A program made the position numbers and the translations under genes. DNA of 63,529 bases, filler included, from Globobulimina sp. (Eukaryota): assembly GCA_003354225.1 (NCBI GenBank). It is 11 parts of 11 records of this genome, joined end to end, with 100 filler letters (N's around TTAATTAATTAA, not from the genome) between each part and the next. Parts side by side here need not be neighbours in the genome. Positions count along the whole stretch, not along the records: positions 46,317 to 51,989 come from PIVH01000471.1; 10 more parts are not named here. One strand, given 5' to 3'. The notes beneath the pieces were generated by a model. The model was not told where the DNA came from. It saw only the letters and a list, made by a program, of their open reading frames with translations, and made no database searches. Positions 34,653 to 51,989 of this stretch are shown here, in pieces. How positions within the stretch are numbered: position 1 is the stretch's first letter; every line of letters starts with the position of its first letter.

Positions 34653-34752
34653 NNNNNNNNNNNNNNNNNNNNNNNNNNNNNNNNNNNNNNNNNNNNTTAA
34701 TTAATTAANNNNNNNNNNNNNNNNNNNNNNNNNNNNNNNNNNNNNNNNNNNN
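34653..34752. other. Artificial contig linker
   Basis: N44-TTAATTAATTAA-N44. Confidence 0.99.
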
Positions 34753-37700
34753 CACCATTGATAAACACCTAATACTAAGAACTGGCGGCCCTAATAAAGA
34801 ACTATTAAAAATACACGACAAAATAATAAAAAAGTCTACGAAATACCTCAAAAAATTTGCAGCAAATATAAATCAACCTCACACTAAAAATGAGCGGAAA
34901 TTTATCTCCCACATCACCTCCATCACCACCGCCTATATACTACATCTTGCATCAATTAAAGCATTCGGTTTGGCGGACTTTAACACTACGAATAAATGGT
35001 CGACGCTGTCACGTAAACAAATCACTTTGAACATAAAACAGAGATTACTAATGAACACAAATAATAATACTAATGAGGGTAAAAAACTAATGGCTGAGGC
35101 TGAGGCTGAATATATACAAAATAAACAAAACACATTGACGCAAAATACCATAAAATTCAGCAATCTCAACCATTCCAGCAAACTGAAGACATTTAAAACA
35201 TACAATAAAAATAAGGACTTTATATTGGATGAGCCCTTCTTAAATTATAATAATACCATAATGAATAAAAACGAAGCGTTATCACAGTTCTTCTGCAAAA
35301 TAAATGGTCCCATAGATGATCCTAATGATAATCCCCAAATAAATAATATAAACGATTTCCAAAAAGTACTTGATATGCCGTTAAATAGCTCCTTGACTTT
35401 CATCCCCCAGATACCGACAGAAAACGACCTAGAAACTGCTTGCCAAACATCACCAACTCCTATATTTACAAATATTGACATGAATGTAGAATATAAAGAG
35501 GAGCCCAATTATGACCCCAATTATGTCCCAATAACACAACCAATAATGAATGAATTATATGCACTGGAACACAGTGACCAGGATTATGACAGTGATAATG
35601 ACGTAATCATAAACATGCCCTCCCAAACCCCGCACACTCCGCCAATCCGTACTGATCTTGTCGAGAGCGATGAAAAAAAGGAAGTTGCGGATGCCCCAAC
35701 CTGCCATAACAACATAAACATGAATAAAAAGGCCAAATATCACTCCGTTGAGTTGGCCATTTCCTATGCGAATCAAAATAGTGCCCCAGGATATGATGGG
35801 ATAAAATCTGTACACCTTAAAACCAACGGACACTCCATAAACGAACTATTATGTACAATGTTCAACGTCTGGAACAAATCATTCTTAATTCCATATTATT
35901 GGAGGCTCGGCACTGTGATACCAATATTAAAAACAAAAGATGGTGATACGCCAAACCAATACAGACCCATTACATTACTGCCTATTATATTTAAAACTTA
36001 TGAAAGACTAATCCTCTGGGAAATGAGTATAAAACACAAATTCAGAAAAAACCTACATACACTACAAGGCGGTAACAGGTCCAGAAGAGGGGTGCCGGAG
36101 CAGATTGGTTGTATCAATTTGATTGCTGAGACTGCCAAAATGAGAGAGATTCCCCTTTATTGTGCCCTCCTTGACATCCGAAAGGCATTTGACACAGTGT
36201 GGAGGAAAGGGCTCCTCTACAAATTAAATAACCAATTTAAAATACCACTAAATCTCTGCAAAATAATTCGGGCGATCTATGATAACTCGCAGTCTGCCAT
36301 CAGAGATCTACCCTTCATAACAAATAAATTCATACTCCATAATGGTGTGCTGCAAGGATCAGTACTCTCCCCTGTCCTCTATGCAGCATTTCTTAATGAT
36401 TTGATTGAAGAATTACAAAACTCAGCATGTGGTGCTGCCTCACCTGACCCCAATGAGCCGATTGCATGCACTTTCTATGCCGATGATATCATACTTACCG
36501 CAAACAAAATCTCCCACTTAAATAAGCTGTTGAAAATATGCCAGAGCCATAGCAACCACTGGAAATATAGCTTCAACAACAAAAAATCTAAAACAATTAT
36601 ATACAATGACAATACCCTGAATTATAATGACAATATAAATACTTACAACATGAATGACATAATGTTAATAAATCACGAATATCATAATATAAATGCGATA
36701 CAAAATAACAAACCCGCCCCAATGATATTAATGCAAAAACCTATAAATAATAAAATAATGGCAATAAACATATACAATAAACTGCAGACTTATAATATTG
36801 ATGATATTCCACACAAACATTTACAACGCTTTTTGGATCATGTCAAATTCTATGGCGATATAACCAATAAACCATACCCAATAATGTGGGATAATATTCG
36901 TTACGATCGTGGATTTGCGCCGTCTGTAATGCATCTAAAGCTGCGACTGAATGGAAAAAGCCTGCACTGCACAACATTTATAAGATATCTTGGTGCTATG
37001 TTGTGCAGCTACGACAACACCAACTTGGTGTCGACGGAGTATACGAATGCAGTGTTTCTGAAAAAACTTGACTCAAAAGCTCACATTTTAGCGACTCTGG
37101 ATTTCAATCACATTTATATTTCACTCGCAGACAAAATACAAATACTAAAGACTTTCTATCTAGTCTACACAGAAATATTTGCCCAAATTCTTGATTGTGA
37201 CAAAATAAAACTGAAACAAGCCACAGACAAACAACTACAAACAATTTATACACAAACAAAAATTAAAAATTTCGTCCCGGCACAACTTTACCTTTGGGCA
37301 GGAATCCCCACACCATACGAACGTTGGGTATCGCTAAAAATCTCCTTTTATTGGAAACTAATAAAAGGAGGGAACATCTCCATGATGCATCAATGGGCAA
37401 AGCTCTCCCATATCCATCACCATAAACTCTTCAAACAATACATTGATTTAAAAAATAAATGGTTGCCGCCGATACGCCTTTCCACAAACAACAACATTAC
37501 ATGGATTGATCCCTTTGACTCCGTTTCCCATTCACATGAACTAAAACCATTAATTGTTAAAAATCAACACATCCAAATCATCAATGCATTAAACCACTAT
37601 CATCCGATCAAAATCCTAAATCATGTCACTGATAACTATAAACCAATGAACTGCTATGAACTTAATGAATTGGCTGATTATGTAAAGAATGACATGATAG

Positions 37701-38917
37701 ATGTTTACCGTGAGATATTCTATAATTTTAACACCAAAAATAATTACTGTCATCTTTGTCACTCCCAAACCAATGTCCCTATTGAATATCATTTAGCAGT
37801 GCTTTGCCCAAACCTAAATATCCTAAGACATGAATACTGGAACCATGCATCTGCAACATTTGCAAAAAGCGGCGCAACAATCAACAAAATACACCATCAT
37901 CTGTACATGCAAAGATTGATCGAACTATGCCAAAATGTCAATACACAAAAAGTCCAATTCTGGAATGTCCTCTGTGGTGCTAATATATTTAATACTGACA
38001 CCAATAAGTTTGCCTACACACACAAACAAATAAACATAAACACAAATAAACATACTTTATACAAAGAAGTAGTCTCCCAAACGCACCGATGGCTCACCCA
38101 CACACTTGACATAAACAGCGGTAATAGCACCATAAGACGTATCCGATCCAAGCACAATTTAGTCCCCTCAAAAATGATAATATTTCACACACGCAATGAT
38201 AACTTCCATGAATGGAGATACTACCAACATAAAATCAACGCCAATGACCTCATAATTGCCACTGATTCTTCACGCGATCCACAAACAAACACAGCAGGCA
38301 TAGGCATCTGTATCATCGATGGAAACAGAATACACTGCTTTGCGCAACCTATTGGGCCCCAATCCAATCATTATGGCGAACTCTATGCTATCCACAAATC
38401 GCAATTTCTCATCAATTACTGCAACATAAATATTTCCAATCGAAGAATCCTAATATTTACAGATTCCTTATTTAATTTCCTCCCCCTTATAATCACTCCA
38501 AAATATTCAAACAAGAAACCATTATCCATCCTATTCAAAAATACACAAAATTATATCAAACGCAATAAAATCATATTATGGAAAGTGAAATCACATACCC
38601 AACCCCACCAACAACCGTTTAATATGATTGCAGACATCCTAGCAGACATTGGTCGACAACATCCACGCAACTCCAATCTCATCACAACAAACTACAATTC
38701 AATCAGATACGCCAAATACAAATCCTTTCTCTATCCACAGGGTATTATACCCAATGACCTTTATTCTCTCGCCGGGATGTTCAAGCAATCGGTGAGCATG
38801 GAGCCAGACTTAGATCCTGGCTGAATGTTCCCCCACTACTATACAATCTACAAAATAAAATGATATATACGATGTAAAAGAAATAAAATTGCAAACAATA
38901 AGATGAAAAATAAATAA
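34753..38917 (+). mobile_element. Non-LTR retrotransposon (5' truncated at contig edge) with an A-rich 3' end
   Basis: Intronless RT-RNase H ORF open from the contig start, followed by a short A-rich tract at 38851-38917. Confidence 0.85.
34754..38824 (+). CDS. Retrotransposon polyprotein: RT, CCHC zinc knuckle, RNase H
   Basis: APGYDGI, YRPITLL, QGGNR, LDIRKAFDTV, GVLQGSVLSP, YADD, RYLG; CHLC...H....CP; RNase H IATDSS / GELYAI / IFTDS / KVKSH / NMIADILA. Confidence 0.92.
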   Translation, partial: TIDKHLILRTGGPNKELLKIHDKIIKKSTKYLKKFAANINQPHTKNERKFISHITSITTAYILHLASIKAFGLADFNTTNKWSTLSRKQITLNIKQRLLMNTNNNTNEGKKLMAEAEAEYIQNKQNTLTQNTIKFSNLNHSSKLKTFKTYNKNKDFILDEPFLNYNNTIMNKNEALSQFFCKINGPIDDPNDNPQINNINDFQKVLDMPLNSSLTFIPQIPTENDLETACQTSPTPIFTNIDMNVEYKEEPNYDPNYVPITQPIMNELYALEHSDQDYDSDNDVIINMPSQTPHTPPIRTDLVESDEKKEVADAPTCHNNINMNKKAKYHSVELAISYANQNSAPGYDGIKSVHLKTNGHSINELLCTMFNVWNKSFLIPYYWRLGTVIPILKTKDGDTPNQYRPITLLPIIFKTYERLILWEMSIKHKFRKNLHTLQGGNRSRRGVPEQIGCINLIAETAKMREIPLYCALLDIRKAFDTVWRKGLLYKLNNQFKIPLNLCKIIRAIYDNSQSAIRDLPFITNKFILHNGVLQGSVLSPVLYAAFLNDLIEELQNSACGAASPDPNEPIACTFYADDIILTANKISHLNKLLKICQSHSNHWKYSFNNKKSKTIIYNDNTLNYNDNINTYNMNDIMLINHEYHNINAIQNNKPAPMILMQKPINNKIMAINIYNKLQTYNIDDIPHKHLQRFLDHVKFYGDITNKPYPIMWDNIRYDRGFAPSVMHLKLRLNGKSLHCTTFIRYLGAMLCSYDNTNLVSTEYTNAVFLKKLDSKAHILATLDFNHIYISLADKIQILKTFYLVYTEIFAQILDCDKIKLKQATDKQLQTIYTQTKIKNFVPAQLYLWAGIPTPYERWVSLKISFYWKLIKGGNISMMHQWAKLSHIHHHKLFKQYIDLKNKWLPPIRLSTNNNITWIDPFDSVSHSHELKPLIVKNQHIQIINALNHYHPIKILNHVTDNYKPMNCYELNELADYVKNDMIDVYREIFYNFNTKNNYCHLCHSQTNVPIEYHLAVLCPNLNILRHEYWNHASATFAKSGATINKIHHHLYMQRLIELCQNVNTQKVQFWNVLCGANIFNTDTNKFAYTHKQININTNKHTLYKEVVSQTHRWLTHTLDINSGNSTIRRIRSKHNLVPSKMIIFHTRNDNFHEWRYYQHKINANDLIIATDSSRDPQTNTAGIGICIIDGNRIHCFAQPIGPQSNHYGELYAIHKSQFLINYCNINISNRRILIFTDSLFNFLPLIITPKYSNKKPLSILFKNTQNYIKRNKIILWKVKSHTQPHQQPFNMIADILADIGRQHPRNSNLITTNYNSIRYAKYKSFLYPQGIIPNDLYSLAGMFKQSVSMEPDLDPG

Positions 38918-46316: not shown

Positions 46317-46516
46317 ATTTACAGTTTTTTACAGATTATTCAAAATAAAAACATTGAAAGTCAAAATTGAATTCTTAAAGGTTGTGTTTCATCGGGAACC
46401 ATTAACATTTTATTATTAACCTATTTTCCTTCCTTAGGATCAGTTTACAGTCGATCTGGAATGAATTGATTGTAATACGTTATTTGTGATTTCTCTTTTT
46501 GCAATTTTTGGCACAT

Positions 46517-46693
46517 TTTTTGCGGAACAGAACTGTGGCGCAATTGCTATGTTTTATGGAACAAGCATTGTGGAAATGTCAACGTGATTTGTAGTTAGTT
46601 TATGGAACAGGTTTTTGAATTGCGGAAACGCAAAGCGGATAATATATACAGCTCCGCAAACACAAAGCAGATAATATATACAGTTCCGCAAAA
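46517..46693. repeat. Repeat cluster: 32-bp tandem duplication plus direct and inverted GCGGAAC/TGGAAC motifs
   Basis: AAAC(G/A)CAAAGC(G/A)GATAATATATACAG(C/T)TCCGC at 46626 and 46658; TTTTGCGGAAC at 46517 is the reverse complement of 46683-46693. Confidence 0.7.
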
Positions 46694-46853
46694 TGCTTTT
46701 TCAAGTTAACTTTTTTGACGAAGAAAATAAAATAAATTAAATAAAACCTGTTTTGACAACCAATTAAAACAGGAAAAAAAAAGGAAACGTAAACACCGCG
46801 ACACCTTCACAAAATAAAAAAACAAACATAAAAATAACATTGATAATATCCAG

Positions 46854-49800
46854 TCATTGCATATGATTTTTAACCAATAATAATATCAGATTTTTAACCG
46901 AGTATTTCTTTGGTTTAATCTCTTTATACGTGCAAAAATCCCTTAATTGCTTTGAAACAAATCCCAATGACTTTAAATGTGCAATTAATGCATTTTCATC
47001 CAAATTTTCTGTTCCTTTCCAAATATTTGCATAATGTTCATGAATAACGTCATGTTTCTGTCTATGATCTTGATAAAAATAAAACGTTTTTCCATCAAAT
47101 TTTTTAGTTAATGCTTTTTTACTTGAAACTGTTTTACTTTTCTTGTTTGATCCATTATTTATTGGTTTTGCTCGTCGTTTTCTTGTATTATTTGTTGGAT
47201 CCAATATTTCCAAATTTGGGGTCGATAATAGCATATTATTATTATTATGATTTGTATCCAATGGTGGCAGCGATAAATGAGTTGCAATTATATCCAATGG
47301 CGGCGGTGCATGTGCTAATAAATTATAATCATTAAATATATCATCAGGATTAGGATAATTGCGATGAAATATCATATCGATATCATCATTATTCACATTC
47401 AAGTCCGAATCCGAAACCGAATCAGAATCAGATTCCATTAAAAAATCATTCACGTTCTCCATACAATTATCATCATTCACATTTAAATCATTTACATTTA
47501 CATCATTGGCAGGTACATTATCCATAAGATTGTCATTGGTATCAACGACATCCATATCAATATCTTGTTCAACGATATCTTGTTCAACAATTTCATTTAC
47601 AGCAATATCACTTACATCCACATCAATATTTGCAATTATTTTTGGTTTGTAAACTAAACGATAATCTTTCTTGACATATACAGCGACACTCCACTCGTCA
47701 TCATACATTGTAATATCAATATTATTTTTAATATGTAATAAATCGTTTTTGATCGAGTACTGTTTTCTGTGTAAAATATTATAAATCATTGTATCAACAT
47801 TAATATTATTTTCAATCGTAATAATCCGTAATATATAATCGTTTGACTCCATATTTAATCGTATTTTTCTGTGTGTACTCAACTCAAAATAAAATATAAT
47901 AATATCAGATAATAAATCTCCATTATATATAAGTTCCAACAAATCAATCTCTTCAACTTCTTCTTTGTCACTTTGATTAAAAAAATGCTCATATTGCGCT
48001 GCATTAATACATTTCATTTGGGTTTGTTGCTGATTCCTTGCATTCAATTCATCCACAAACAATACTAATAGTTGGTATGTATGGATCGCTTGCTCAAAAA
48101 TTAAATGATGTATTGGTTCCAATGACTCCTCATAAATAACTAAATCAACAACGTTGTTACTATCCATATCGCGTATTATTATACCAGTTAGATATAATAA
48201 TGAATTTTCATGTGTTTGCATACAATTTGAAAATAAAAATGATTTAAATTGTTGAATATTGAAAATAATTTGAAAAAACGGAGATAAATATGATTGTTTG
48301 AGACCACATAAACTGTCATTGATGTGATGGCTGCATATCAAACATAATCAAATTATATTTATATTATAGAAACACTTATAATTGTAATATAACATATATT
48401 TATATATAAAAACCAAACTTTATTCGCCGTGTAATGCAATTAATTGTTTTTTTGATTGTATCTTCACCAAATTCATCAGCATCGGTTGAATCGACATATA
48501 TTAAGCCATTAAATTGCATCAATCCACTGCAACTACCACAAATCCAAAGTTTCGCCTCGTTCTTATAAAAAAATTGAATATTTTCTTCAAAAACACATTT
48601 CAAATGAATCTTAATACCACAGTTGGAACACAAACATGTTTCTTCGTCATCTTCCATAATATTTGACCCCTCAATGCATACTAAATTAACATCATGATTT
48701 AATTTGTTTGATAAACATCGTTTTGATAATGCCAGAAATTCATAATCATCATCAATATTTGAGCGTTGTTGAATAATTGTTTGCGAACTAAATTCTTTCG
48801 GAGTTGCACCGCCAGCCATTAATGATGATGCTGTTAATATCGAATCTGTTCCATTTCGCAGTTTATTTGCTACCAAAGACATATCACAATGCATCTCATC
48901 CTTTCCTTCATCCGCCATATTGCCATAATATACATTCAAACTATCTCTATCAATTAATTTCATTAAATGCAGTCCCATTTTAATTGTTGCTTTTTTGTTG
49001 TTTAATAATAATTTATCAGACGCAATAATAACACTTTCAAACATTTCTAAATATACTTTATAATGTTTCCCTTCTTCGCAAGTTACTAATAATGGATTAA
49101 TACATTTATATCGTTGCAAGCAATGAATAATCGCATTGTATGTGGTTACAAATGCTGCATTATTTATTTTTATTGAAAATATAGCACTTAATTTAGTATT
49201 TATTGATTTTCTCAAAATGTCATTAATTTGATTAATATTTCTATCATTTTTTAATAATATTTTTACATCATTTATATCATTAATATCATTTAAATCATCC
49301 TCATAAATCAATTGATCGTCATAATTATGCTGCAAATAATCAACGATTGTTTGTAAGTATTCATCTGTACCAACTTCCATTGATTTACAAATTATTTTAA
49401 TATCACAAATAGTTTGATGGATTTTATGCTTTTCCTCAGTAAATCCCATATTAAAAGCCATCCCAACTAATATTAATTGAGATATAATCATCGCTTCAGG
49501 CGCTCGTTCTTTTTTTATTGTTTGATTTGACATATATTCAGTGTAATATCCAAACGCTACTTTTTCCTCAAATAATGTGATTACCATAAGATGCATTTTA
49601 TTGTTATACTCCGAGATTAAAAACGTTTCTATTCCGTTTAATAATGATTTTGCGATTTGGCTATATACCTTGACATAATTGTAATTATTTATATTATGAT
49701 TTGTTTGTTTAATTAAATCATTATCTAAAATAATATTATTATCTTTTAATAAATTACCAAAACGATTATTTTCTGTTAAATTAAATGTGTCTAAATCTGA

Positions 49801-51737
49801 TGAAACATTTAACATTTCTCTCCAAGTATCATTATGCATTTCTCTGTTTTTCAAATCGAAAATAAAACGTAACAAACCTTCCCATTCTTCTGTTGTAAAT
49901 TCTGTTTTATAATCTGTAACAAATAATAGATCATTGGCTATTTTTAATAGATATATCAATTTTTCTTTATTTCGTTTAATTGTCATTGATGTATGAACGC
50001 ATTTAACAAGCCAGCTTCGCTCATATTGATTTAATCCATTTTTAGTATTTCTTGATATTAATCCAGGCACAAAATGTATAAGCATTACTGTTCCAGAACA
50101 TTGGATTGATGTACTTTTGACCGCCCATAATCGGATTTTATATCGTAATGAATGAGGATTAAATCTTTTATCACAATCAAAATAATGAATTCCATGTTTG
50201 GCAACATTGTGTTGTCGCAATAATTCAATATTACCACCATTTAAAGGAGAACGAATCGATTTTTTTTTCTTTCTCCAATATTTATCAATGTTCTTTTTTC
50301 TAATATTTACATCCGGAATTCCATATTTTTTGTTGTGTTTCCCATTTTGTGCTATAAATCTACAAAAGTTATTGTTCATTTTTGTGTGAATAAAAATAAT
50401 AAATTGTATTGGCGATATTGATTGATTGTTTACTTCCATATATTGAATTTTATGCAGGTTTTCTACGTAATTACTATGATTGAAAATTAATCCTTGAATA
50501 ATACGGCTTGGTTTAACGTTACGTGCAAATGAATAATTTAGTCGCACCCAGTATAAATCCAAAAATAACCGTTTAACTATTTTGCCAACAGTTGGGTGTG
50601 GCGTATATTTCCAATATATTTGATTCATTTTACATATTCCTTCATCAAATGTTTCAGTAATAAGTAAGTCTTTCATAGCTGCAATAAATTCGTACTTTTC
50701 ACCGCTTTCCATGCCATATGCAATTTTTTCTGGTTGCCTGCCACAATGAACAAAGTCATTTTCAAATACGCTGTCTATATTATTCTTTTTCAACCATTCC
50801 AATGCAAATTTTTGATGAAAATCTAATAATTGCTCATTAACTTTATCGTCTGAATAAAAAAATTTGATAATTCCATTACACTTCACCAAATCAACCCATT
50901 TATCATTTAAATGCAATGATAATGCGACAGAAAATCCAGCTCTTATCTTTGAGCATAAATCAGTGCAACATAATAATGTCTTAGCAATCCTTCTAAAATC
51001 AGGAATTTTCGCTGCAATTAATTGAATAAAAAAACCAAAATTGATACAATGCGATATCATATTTTCCTGCGGCGACACTAATAAATATTGGATCGGCAAC
51101 ACAATGTTTAAATTTTCCAATAATACCATAGTATCAGTCACCTGATAATTATGCTTTGCTCCGATCTTAAATGTTGTATCCACGACAGAATAAAATTTGA
51201 CAATTTGCCTGGCTAATTTTGGATATCTTTGAAGGACCGCTGTCGCCGCCTCTGGCATTTGCCAATCATAAACGTTTTTATCTGCAAACGATTCCACCAT
51301 TATTGACGCTGTTTCTTTATGCTTTTATATTTATATATATATATATATATATATTATTAAATAAATAAACAAAAAAATAAATACTTACTGATATGACAAC
51401 ACATATTTGTTTACTATAGATCTCAGCGTAAATAACACGCTCCTTCAATCCTTCGGGAATTCCATCTGTAAACATCTTAAAAGCACTTTGTGTGTTGCAT
51501 CCCATTAATTTAAATTTATTTGACCTGTTTTATGTGTTTTTAGTATGATAAACATAAAAAAAACATCAAAATAAAATACCGTGCAGTGTTTCTATAACTT
51601 CTTATTCTATCCAATGATCGATAATATGGATCATATTCGCCGGCAACATGGTCGTTTTTGTATCTTGGATGAGGGTACGTGGCATTTGATATTTGTTTTG
51701 GCTTTTCAAATGCCAATGGGTTCCTATTGCGAGACAT
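46854..51737 (-). mobile_element. Mutator-like (MULE) DDE transposase gene, spliced, with PHD finger and long C-terminal extension
   Basis: VVDTTFK...LPIQYLL...CTDLCSKIRAG...DFVH...SNYVENLHK fits the MULE D-D-(C/D)xxH-E pattern; PHD-like CSNCGIKIHLKC...WICGSC; introns 51525-51579, 51322-51388 and 48331-48418 join four ORFs in frame. Confidence 0.72.
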
Positions 51738-51886
51738 CTATATATTTTTAAAATTATATTATATTATATTATGTGTTTATAAATATCTGTTTATTTGAGT
51801 GAATGCACTGATTTGAGTGTTGATGGTGTTGGAGTGGAGGATGCCGGATTTGAACGAGTTGCTATGGTGTTGGTGACTGCCGAACT

Positions 51887-51989
51887 TGATATTGGATATG
51901 TTTGAGCGTGGAATTGCGGACATGATATTGGATATGTTTGATGCGTGGAATTGCGGACATGATATTGGATATGTTTGATGCGTGGATTT
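51887..51989. repeat. 36-37-bp tandem repeat (about 2.8 copies) running into the contig end
   Basis: TGATATTGGATATGTTTGA(T)GCGTGGAATTGCGGACA units. Confidence 0.9.

Follow-up and report, generated by a model that had tools for sequence, protein, structure and literature searches.

The analysed window of 63,529 nt from Globobulimina sp. (assembly GCA_003354225.1) very probably holds the right-hand 5.5 kb of a Mutator-superfamily transposon with one spliced gene. The gene would encode a MuDRF-like transposase of ~1,900 amino acids (aa) with a GCM-like zinc domain, a DDE catalytic core, a PHD-like finger and a USP-like domain that is likely catalytically dead. What is unusual in the element is that the likely dead USP has been kept; otherwise it is a known kind of transposon.

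The window consists of unrelated contigs of ~5.7 kb chained with N spacers, and genomic context for the gene is confined to positions 46317-51989 (G000:C471). Searches within the organism's own genome covered a 70-Mb assembly of 48,370 contigs, and all counts from it are lower bounds. Of 1.84 billion proteins searched with a profile, 35 matched, among them 8 proteins of 1,629-4,103 aa that cover the core, the middle region and the PHD-like finger. Among 20 proteins that were looked up, named homologues came from Bolivina argentea (3 proteins) and Nonionella stella (1 protein). P0020, in which 17 stretches are repeated, was counted as a low-complexity match.

Element ends and target-site duplications

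The gene lies within a DNA transposon of Mutator type that has terminal inverted repeats and makes target duplications of 9 bp. The right end (46510..46765) comprises a terminal inverted repeat of ~29 bp (46510-46538, starting GGCAC) and subterminal sequence common to short derivatives. A repeat shared by many contigs stops sharply at 46510, and the gene lies 316 bases inside the terminal repeat. Left-type ends carry a terminal repeat 93-97% identical to the right end in the window. The 18-base terminal pattern gave 53 matches in the genome versus none for the reversed control. The outer flanks of these 53 ends (1,378 pairs) yielded 4 exact reverse-complement pairs at 9 bp, none at 8, 10, 11 or 12 bp and one at 7 bp. 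For 9-bp pairs the null mean was 0.019, none of 5,000 draws reached 4, and outward-shifted flanks gave 0, 0, 0, 0 and 1. All 4 exact pairs combine a left-type with a right-type end. The expected right-hand copy of the window element's own duplication is at 46501..46509 (plus strand); its partner was not found with certainty. A search for terminal repeats, target duplications and copies had been proposed in an earlier, sequence-only reading of this DNA, which did not notice that the element ends within the window or that a GCM-like exon likely lies upstream; this search returned the terminal repeat at 46510, the 53 ends and the 9-bp duplications.

Four derivatives fuse a left part like that of contig C16954 (96-97% identity over 159 nt in two, 79-93% in the other two) to a right part 90-98% identical to the right end in the window. 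A 449-bp derivative with an 8/9 duplication is present on C5542, and two further copies of the gene's tail also run into the same terminal end. That an enzyme of this family has been active is shown by the derivatives. Contig depths of run X1 sum to ~10 across the gene and to 110-826 at the right end; these sums are not copy numbers, and they are consistent with many short derivatives. The interval from the stop codon to the terminal repeat holds only one 32-nt duplication, and the minisatellite arrays of the family are in introns.

A separate, very young high-copy repeat was inserted 76 bases beyond the element, and its end occupies 46317-46433. For this repeat 317 candidates were found, the top copies 98-100% identical and nearly all at contig ends; summed depth in run X1 was ~15,000, and an inverted partner was seen in two contigs. 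It was rejected as the end of the transposon, with flanks that differ in 10/10 other copies shown and an orientation that points away from the gene.

Gene structure and sister copies

The gene model comprises 1,557 codons and a stop, with no internal stop, from four minus-strand exons spliced at GT-AG introns. The introns (55, 67 and 88 nt; A+T 82-94%) each have a length of 3n+1, so that the reading frame is restored only on splicing. The four open reading frames (ORFs) that the sequence-only reading had joined across three introns into ~1550 aa are borne out as one spliced gene; its frame-preserving introns are not multiples of three, and its model is very likely 5'-incomplete. ORFs of 974 and 497 codons are far longer than expected by chance, the longest ORF in 1,000 shuffles having 168 codons.

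Exon A (51580..51737, aa 1-53 of the window model) is likely the second exon of the element; it is conserved in C2252, and in 8 long homologues it aligns right behind the GCM-like domain. Intron 1 (51525..51579, 55 nt, phase 2) has the same position and phase in C2252. Exon B (51389..51524, aa 53-98) was placed by the splice model and by sister copy comparison. Intron 2 (51322..51388, 67 nt, phase 0) is the same in C2252, and its acceptor is also present in C17705. Exon C (48419..51321, aa 99-1066) encodes the DDE core, the middle region and the PHD-like finger, and exon D (46854..48330) encodes aa 1066-1557 and the stop. Between them, intron 3 (48331..48418, 88 nt, phase 2) is conserved in sister contigs: its donor is shared with C2252, C9554 and C31820, its acceptor phase with C26135, C9554 and C31820, and the two sister copies in which it is complete have lengths of 54 and 67 nt. 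The 48419/48330 junction is the shorter of two frame-keeping GT-AG joins below 150 nt. Bolivina P0005 aligned in one piece over aa 880-1296, continuous across this last junction; it comes from a EukProt set that is probably transcript-derived.

Sister copies of the core number two, at 72-79% identity, with two additional fragments. Sister contigs were found for the middle and PHD region (4), for exon D (5) and for the tail (6). Frameshifts, stops or truncations are present in sister copies. The ratio of nonsynonymous to synonymous substitution rates (dN/dS) against sister copies was 0.13-0.20 in the core, 0.34-0.36 in the middle region, 0.32 in the PHD-like finger, 0.39-0.53 in the USP-like domain and 0.68 in the tail. 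Every domain is under purifying selection.

The probable upstream GCM-like exon

The model is very likely 5'-incomplete and the ATG at 51737 likely internal, because this ATG directly follows an AG and the contig ends inside a minisatellite. The ATG has this position in both copies that possess it (the window copy and C2252), with minisatellite sequence upstream. The likely 3' part of an upstream intron (51738..51989, minus strand) contains a 36-37-nt minisatellite (51870-51979), in which the contig breaks, an AT-rich stretch and an AG acceptor (51739-51738). An open frame at 51809-51989 was rejected as an upstream exon, being minisatellite read-through.

A Cys/His domain lies upstream of the exon A equivalent in 8/8 long homologues. 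A search of the own genome with this zinc domain found five contigs carrying a first exon. In three of the five, a left repeat is followed by an ATG ~100-130 bases inside and then by the GCM-like exon. The first exon ends with a phase-0 GT donor in 4/5 contigs, with minisatellite arrays following in three. The zinc pattern C-x-G-x3-C-x4-C...C...H-x3-C is present in 9/9 rows, one of which has a shorter inner spacing, and the exon is found on sister contigs. C16954 likely provides the best candidate first exon, because short derivatives join a C16954-type left end to the right end of the window; the complete protein would then be 347 + 1,557 = 1,904 aa long. By this reasoning a C16954-type first exon would belong to the window copy. 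Word-indexed protein searches returned only P0031 with the zinc domain and no homologue with exon A.

Minisatellites of 35-37 nt with differing units recur in introns of the family (C2252 with C26135 and C23352; C7893, C10827, C16954), and the assembly breaks there. C854 (L124) gave a weak GCM match (E=0.55) and has no detectable link to the window family.

Catalytic core and middle region

The Mutator-type catalytic core (50452..51180, minus strand) contains D146, D219, D287-x2-H290 and E385, which are identical in 9/9 aligned rows (the window protein and 8 long homologues). All motifs quoted in the sequence-only reading are in place (DTTFK at aa146, TD at aa218-219, DFVH at aa287, SNYVENLH at aa381), and its assignment to a Mutator-type transposase is supported. 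The spacing from the second Asp to the His is 71 aa, ~45 above that of host Mutator-like elements (MULEs). In the Atlas, aa 99-558 were located among MULEs (top match 0.93, 157/256 features shared), and 10/10 of the best matches having a family belonged to the MULE family or clan. The core is predicted to adopt an RNase H-like DDE fold. No homologue was found by word-indexed protein search with the core, and nothing meaningful came from PDB sequence searches with queries A1, A2, A3 and A6. The idea of a SWIM finger behind the core was rejected, the Cys/His in question not being conserved in the aligned rows. C36323 (L199) resembles a bacterial IS256-type transposase and is possibly assembly contamination.

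The core is followed by a conserved middle region of ~500 aa (48765..50268, minus strand), with a beta-rich block near aa 625-700 and then likely long helices. It was aligned across 15 homologues and paralogues. A dead Ulp1 (C48), suggested by a W-x-L strand pattern seen by eye, was rejected when 7/25 and 5/25 shuffles scored as high; P0013 had been left out of this test as misaligned. Comparison of the middle region with host Ulp1 or USP gave no match above controls.

PHD-like finger and USP-like domain

The PHD-like finger (48529..48680, minus strand) has 7/8 ligands in place (C980; C996/C999; H1004/C1007; C1026/C1029), one Cys of the first pair being missing or moved. All eight are present in two relatives. 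Pfam PHD matched the window protein at E=9 and five homologues at E=5e-4 to 7e-3, all below the cut-off. These ligands and homologues support the finger that the sequence-only reading had recognised.

A compact USP-like domain follows (47663..48320, minus strand). GLKQSY lies at aa1075, and the position of the catalytic Cys is taken by Ser1079 in the window protein and by Ser in 3/3 paralogues and Bolivina P0005. The His box (G-H-Y) is lacking, and its position aligns to DTM. The match between domain and USP profiles is colinear over 224 columns. When 10 of the 15 rows were compared with 14 host USPs, the alignment was full-length and scored 22.9 (local) and 14.1 (global), and 0/40 block shuffles reached either. 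In 11/11 homologous proteins that were aligned over this part, the domain occupies the same place after the PHD-like finger; one of them is P0032, in which a separate USP follows. The Cys of an LC-type motif at the domain start is kept in 15/15 rows. Atlas neighbours were papain/UCH-like, including C28, C70, poxvirus P4B and UCH; no Pfam or PDB sequence match was obtained. On these alignments the domain is likely a pseudo-deubiquitinase derived from a USP, with its active site lost, that has been retained by selection. The sequence-only reading had noted a USP Cys-box without its Cys, and Ser1079 and the colinear profile match agree with it.

Compared with USP (C19) deubiquitinases, especially the DDE_Tnp_4 fusions on C430 and C1127, the domain aligns colinearly in the Cys-box helix, the second-helix signature and the palm strands. 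It differs in length (~220 aa versus 290-380), in having Ser for Cys and no GHY, and in its shortened fingers. Among the giant homologues, five carry an OTU-like module with DGNC...HY motifs and no Pfam OTU match, and P0032 adds a USP with catalytic Cys (Pfam UCH, E=6e-8). P0007, P0008, P0010, P0011 and P0015 are single ORFs of 3,357-4,103 aa on contigs of 10.5-14.9 kb; four of these contigs measure 13.7-14.9 kb and may be whole elements.

In the own genome, C430 (L151), C1127 (L155) and C5809 (L168) encode DDE_Tnp_4 (Harbinger-like) transposases fused to a SWIM-like motif and to a USP that has both its Cys and its His box; on C430 a PHD-like motif is present as well. C13374 (L107), listed with these fusions, holds the USP part only, and Pfam was run on C430 and C1127 only. 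The single ORF of C7762 (L110:2-1993) is likely the tail of another transposase; it combines a region that looks Ulp1-like by eye with a PHD-like finger and a USP that has its catalytic motifs.

Acidic tract and C-terminal tail

The remainder of exon D encodes an acidic low-complexity tract (47360..47630, minus strand; 27 D/E in 91 aa), RKRR at aa1449 as a candidate nuclear localisation signal (47172..47183, minus strand; kept in C11809), and a C-terminal tail with SKQLRDF at aa1525 (46868..46970, minus strand; matched in 6 other contigs). The sequence-only reading had named all three, and tract and RKRR are both present as described. Its SAP-like end holds in so far as the tail aligns in register with host SAP (hhalign, P=0.04-0.06; 0/30 shuffles as high); the support is weak, the signature Gly/Lys residues of SAP are absent, and Pfam SAP gave no match in the tail. 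Elsewhere in the window, an open frame of 1,371 codons runs from a contig edge over 34709-38824 (plus strand).

Comparison with known transposons

Elements of the MuDRF group (Repbase MuDRF-1_PSt and others) combine GCM and DDE with 9-bp duplications and are known from Basidiomycota and Naegleria (Cantu et al. 2011, PMC3164196). The window element resembles them in a GCM-like zinc domain, likely placed before a very divergent DDE in one protein, and in its 9-bp duplications. It differs in its foraminiferal host and in its PHD-, USP- and SAP-like domains, which the available part of PMC3164196 does not name for MuDRF. The zinc domain of the window family ends in H-x3-C, is below Pfam GCM detection, and in the own genome retains one of the two Cys in the inner CxxC pair. 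By analogy of domain order and duplication length, and not by sequence, the element likely belongs to MuDRF.

Rehavkus, of arthropods and annelids, has one ORF, 9-bp duplications, a PHD finger and an internal minisatellite, according to the part of PMC6446971 that was available, and the window element is similar in these respects, its finger being PHD-like. Its minisatellite precedes the 3' repeat, whereas the arrays of the window family are intronic and accompanied by GCM-like and USP-like domains. C-terminal chromatin-reader and ubiquitin-family protease add-ons are likewise reported in the accessible portions of three papers: OTU in MuDR-6_HM (PMC6446971); MULE-OTU of Medicago and MULE-PHD fusions of Ciona and C. 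elegans (PMC1702500); Mutator and Ginger1 with Ulp1/PHD/OTU and a transposase_11-C19 fusion of Trichomonas (PMC2836005). Those transposases are described there with protease domains, whereas the constant domain of the window family is USP-like without catalytic residues, and an active-looking OTU or USP is found only in some relatives. The accessible part of PMC2836005 offers a reason for protease capture by many transposon superfamilies as a hypothesis only, and that of PMC13359780 names neither PHD nor protease. The architecture, which the sequence-only reading had called undescribed, is so only in part, since GCM + DDE with 9-bp duplications and the PHD, Ulp1 and OTU add-ons of MULEs are published in the portions of these papers at hand. 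No foraminiferal GCM-MULE and no inactive USP in a transposase were found in the literature outside Repbase and subscription journals.

Points against and alternative explanations

Several observations weigh against a MuDRF-like element with a dead USP. At the ends, the duplication (8/9) was found in one of four single-contig complete derivatives and in none of the other three. The search for the left end of the window copy gave 5 matches versus 7 in controls and no physical link, and C15600, the one candidate with an 8/9 duplication, looks like a derivative of another subfamily. C16954 begins within the repeat, and its minisatellite array is unlike that of the window. Metagenome and viral contigs did not yield the DNA that surrounds the giant homologues, and their ends are unseen. 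In run X1, the sole contig listed over 50826-50866 is without these 41 bases, which leads to a frameshift inside the core. The deletion is flanked by two 6-base direct repeats and is the derived state, because both paralogues retain the bases; the window copy may be broken in the X1 sample. Pfam gave only DUF2769 (E=0.34) and PHD (E=9) on the four exons, and no MULE, GCM, UCH or SAP in proteins of the window family, including no GCM in the zinc domain. The match of this domain to mouse GCM1 (PDB 1odh) was weak (E=0.29, second of 2 matches) and was lost once exons of the own genome were added to the query. For the DDE profile against 6 fragmentary host MULE/IS256 sequences, 14/20 shuffles scored as high in hhalign; the H and E motifs were nevertheless aligned, SNxxExxH with NNxxE of host MULE. 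The first comparison of the USP-like domain with host USPs was weak (P=0.1). A score of 36.8 (P=2.4e-4, 0/40 shuffles as high) was reached against 7 USPs chosen after an hmmsearch hint (6 from the own genome, 1 from P0032); most of them are transposon-borne, and 2 are fused to Pfam DDE_Tnp_4 transposases.

The strongest competitor accepts the element and concerns only the domain after the PHD-like finger, which might be a decaying or structural remnant of a captured USP without a ubiquitin role, or an unrelated papain-like fold. Both catalytic motifs are lost, the fingers region is short, dN/dS is higher than in the core, and C28, C70 and poxvirus P4B are Atlas neighbours besides UCH. The constant place of the domain, even in P0032 with its own USP, the invariant Cys of the LC-type motif and a dN/dS still below 1 speak for retention, and we regard the remnant as possible, though short of probable. 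It is very unlikely that the gene is a host gene domesticated from a MULE transposase and now serving as a chromatin factor. Intact frame and introns, purifying selection and related proteins in two other foraminifera would suit it; purifying selection between copies is also expected of transposases, whose catalytic residues are kept here. The gene lies to the inside of a terminal repeat that is common to 53 ends and goes with 9-bp duplications, two other tail copies are also followed by this repeat, and frameshifts, stops and truncations occur in the sister copies. The domesticated derivative that the sequence-only reading had entertained is not upheld on these grounds.

Assignment of the transposase to KDZ/Zisupton instead of Mutator, for which the SAP-like tail and the FDLC-type second Asp might be cited, is highly improbable. 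Zisupton carries SAP and a SUMO protease. The 9-bp duplications, the MULE neighbours in the Atlas and the SNxxExxH alignment favour Mutator; the window family had no similarity to one host KDZ-like sequence (12/20 shuffles as high), and no SWIM residues are conserved. C12120 (L200) encodes a transposase with a weak likeness to KDZ (E=3e-4), for which no link to the window family could be detected. That exon D is a separate gene, as the sequence-only reading had allowed for its 46854-48341 ORF, is scarcely credible: donor and acceptor of intron 3 are kept in sister copies, with lengths of 54, 67 and 88 nt, P0005 continues across the junction, and long homologues run from PHD to the USP-like domain in one ORF.

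Proposed mechanism and implications

For the MuDRF-like transposase, the biology of MULEs suggests that the GCM-like zinc domain would bind the element ends and that the DDE core, as in MULE/IS256, would excise and insert the element by cut-and-paste; repair would leave the 9-bp target duplications. The PHD-like finger and the dead USP could bind marked chromatin, ubiquitin or ubiquitylated proteins without cleavage. It is quite conceivable, if somewhat short of an even chance, that these add-ons anchor the transposase on chromatin or host proteins that are ubiquitylated or otherwise marked, and that the active OTU or USP of some relatives removes the mark, allowing escape from silencing or degradation. 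More doubtfully, the GCM-type Mutator giants (1,600-4,100 aa; foraminifera and metagenome contigs) may have turned a captured USP into a permanent non-catalytic reader of ubiquitin or chromatin that is coupled to PHD, with interchangeable OTU/USP erasers behind it.

If so, a selfish element would hold a fixed pseudoenzyme and, in a single chain, a reader-eraser-transposase toolkit against ubiquitin-based silencing. The family forms a natural series (dead USP alone, with OTU, with USP) for testing why transposons take up ubiquitin/SUMO proteases. USPs with catalytic motifs on DDE_Tnp_4 transposases of the own genome suggest that elements of this little-studied lineage have exchanged domains repeatedly. 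The element would extend GCM-type Mutator transposons to foraminifera, which bears on the origin of animal GCM factors.

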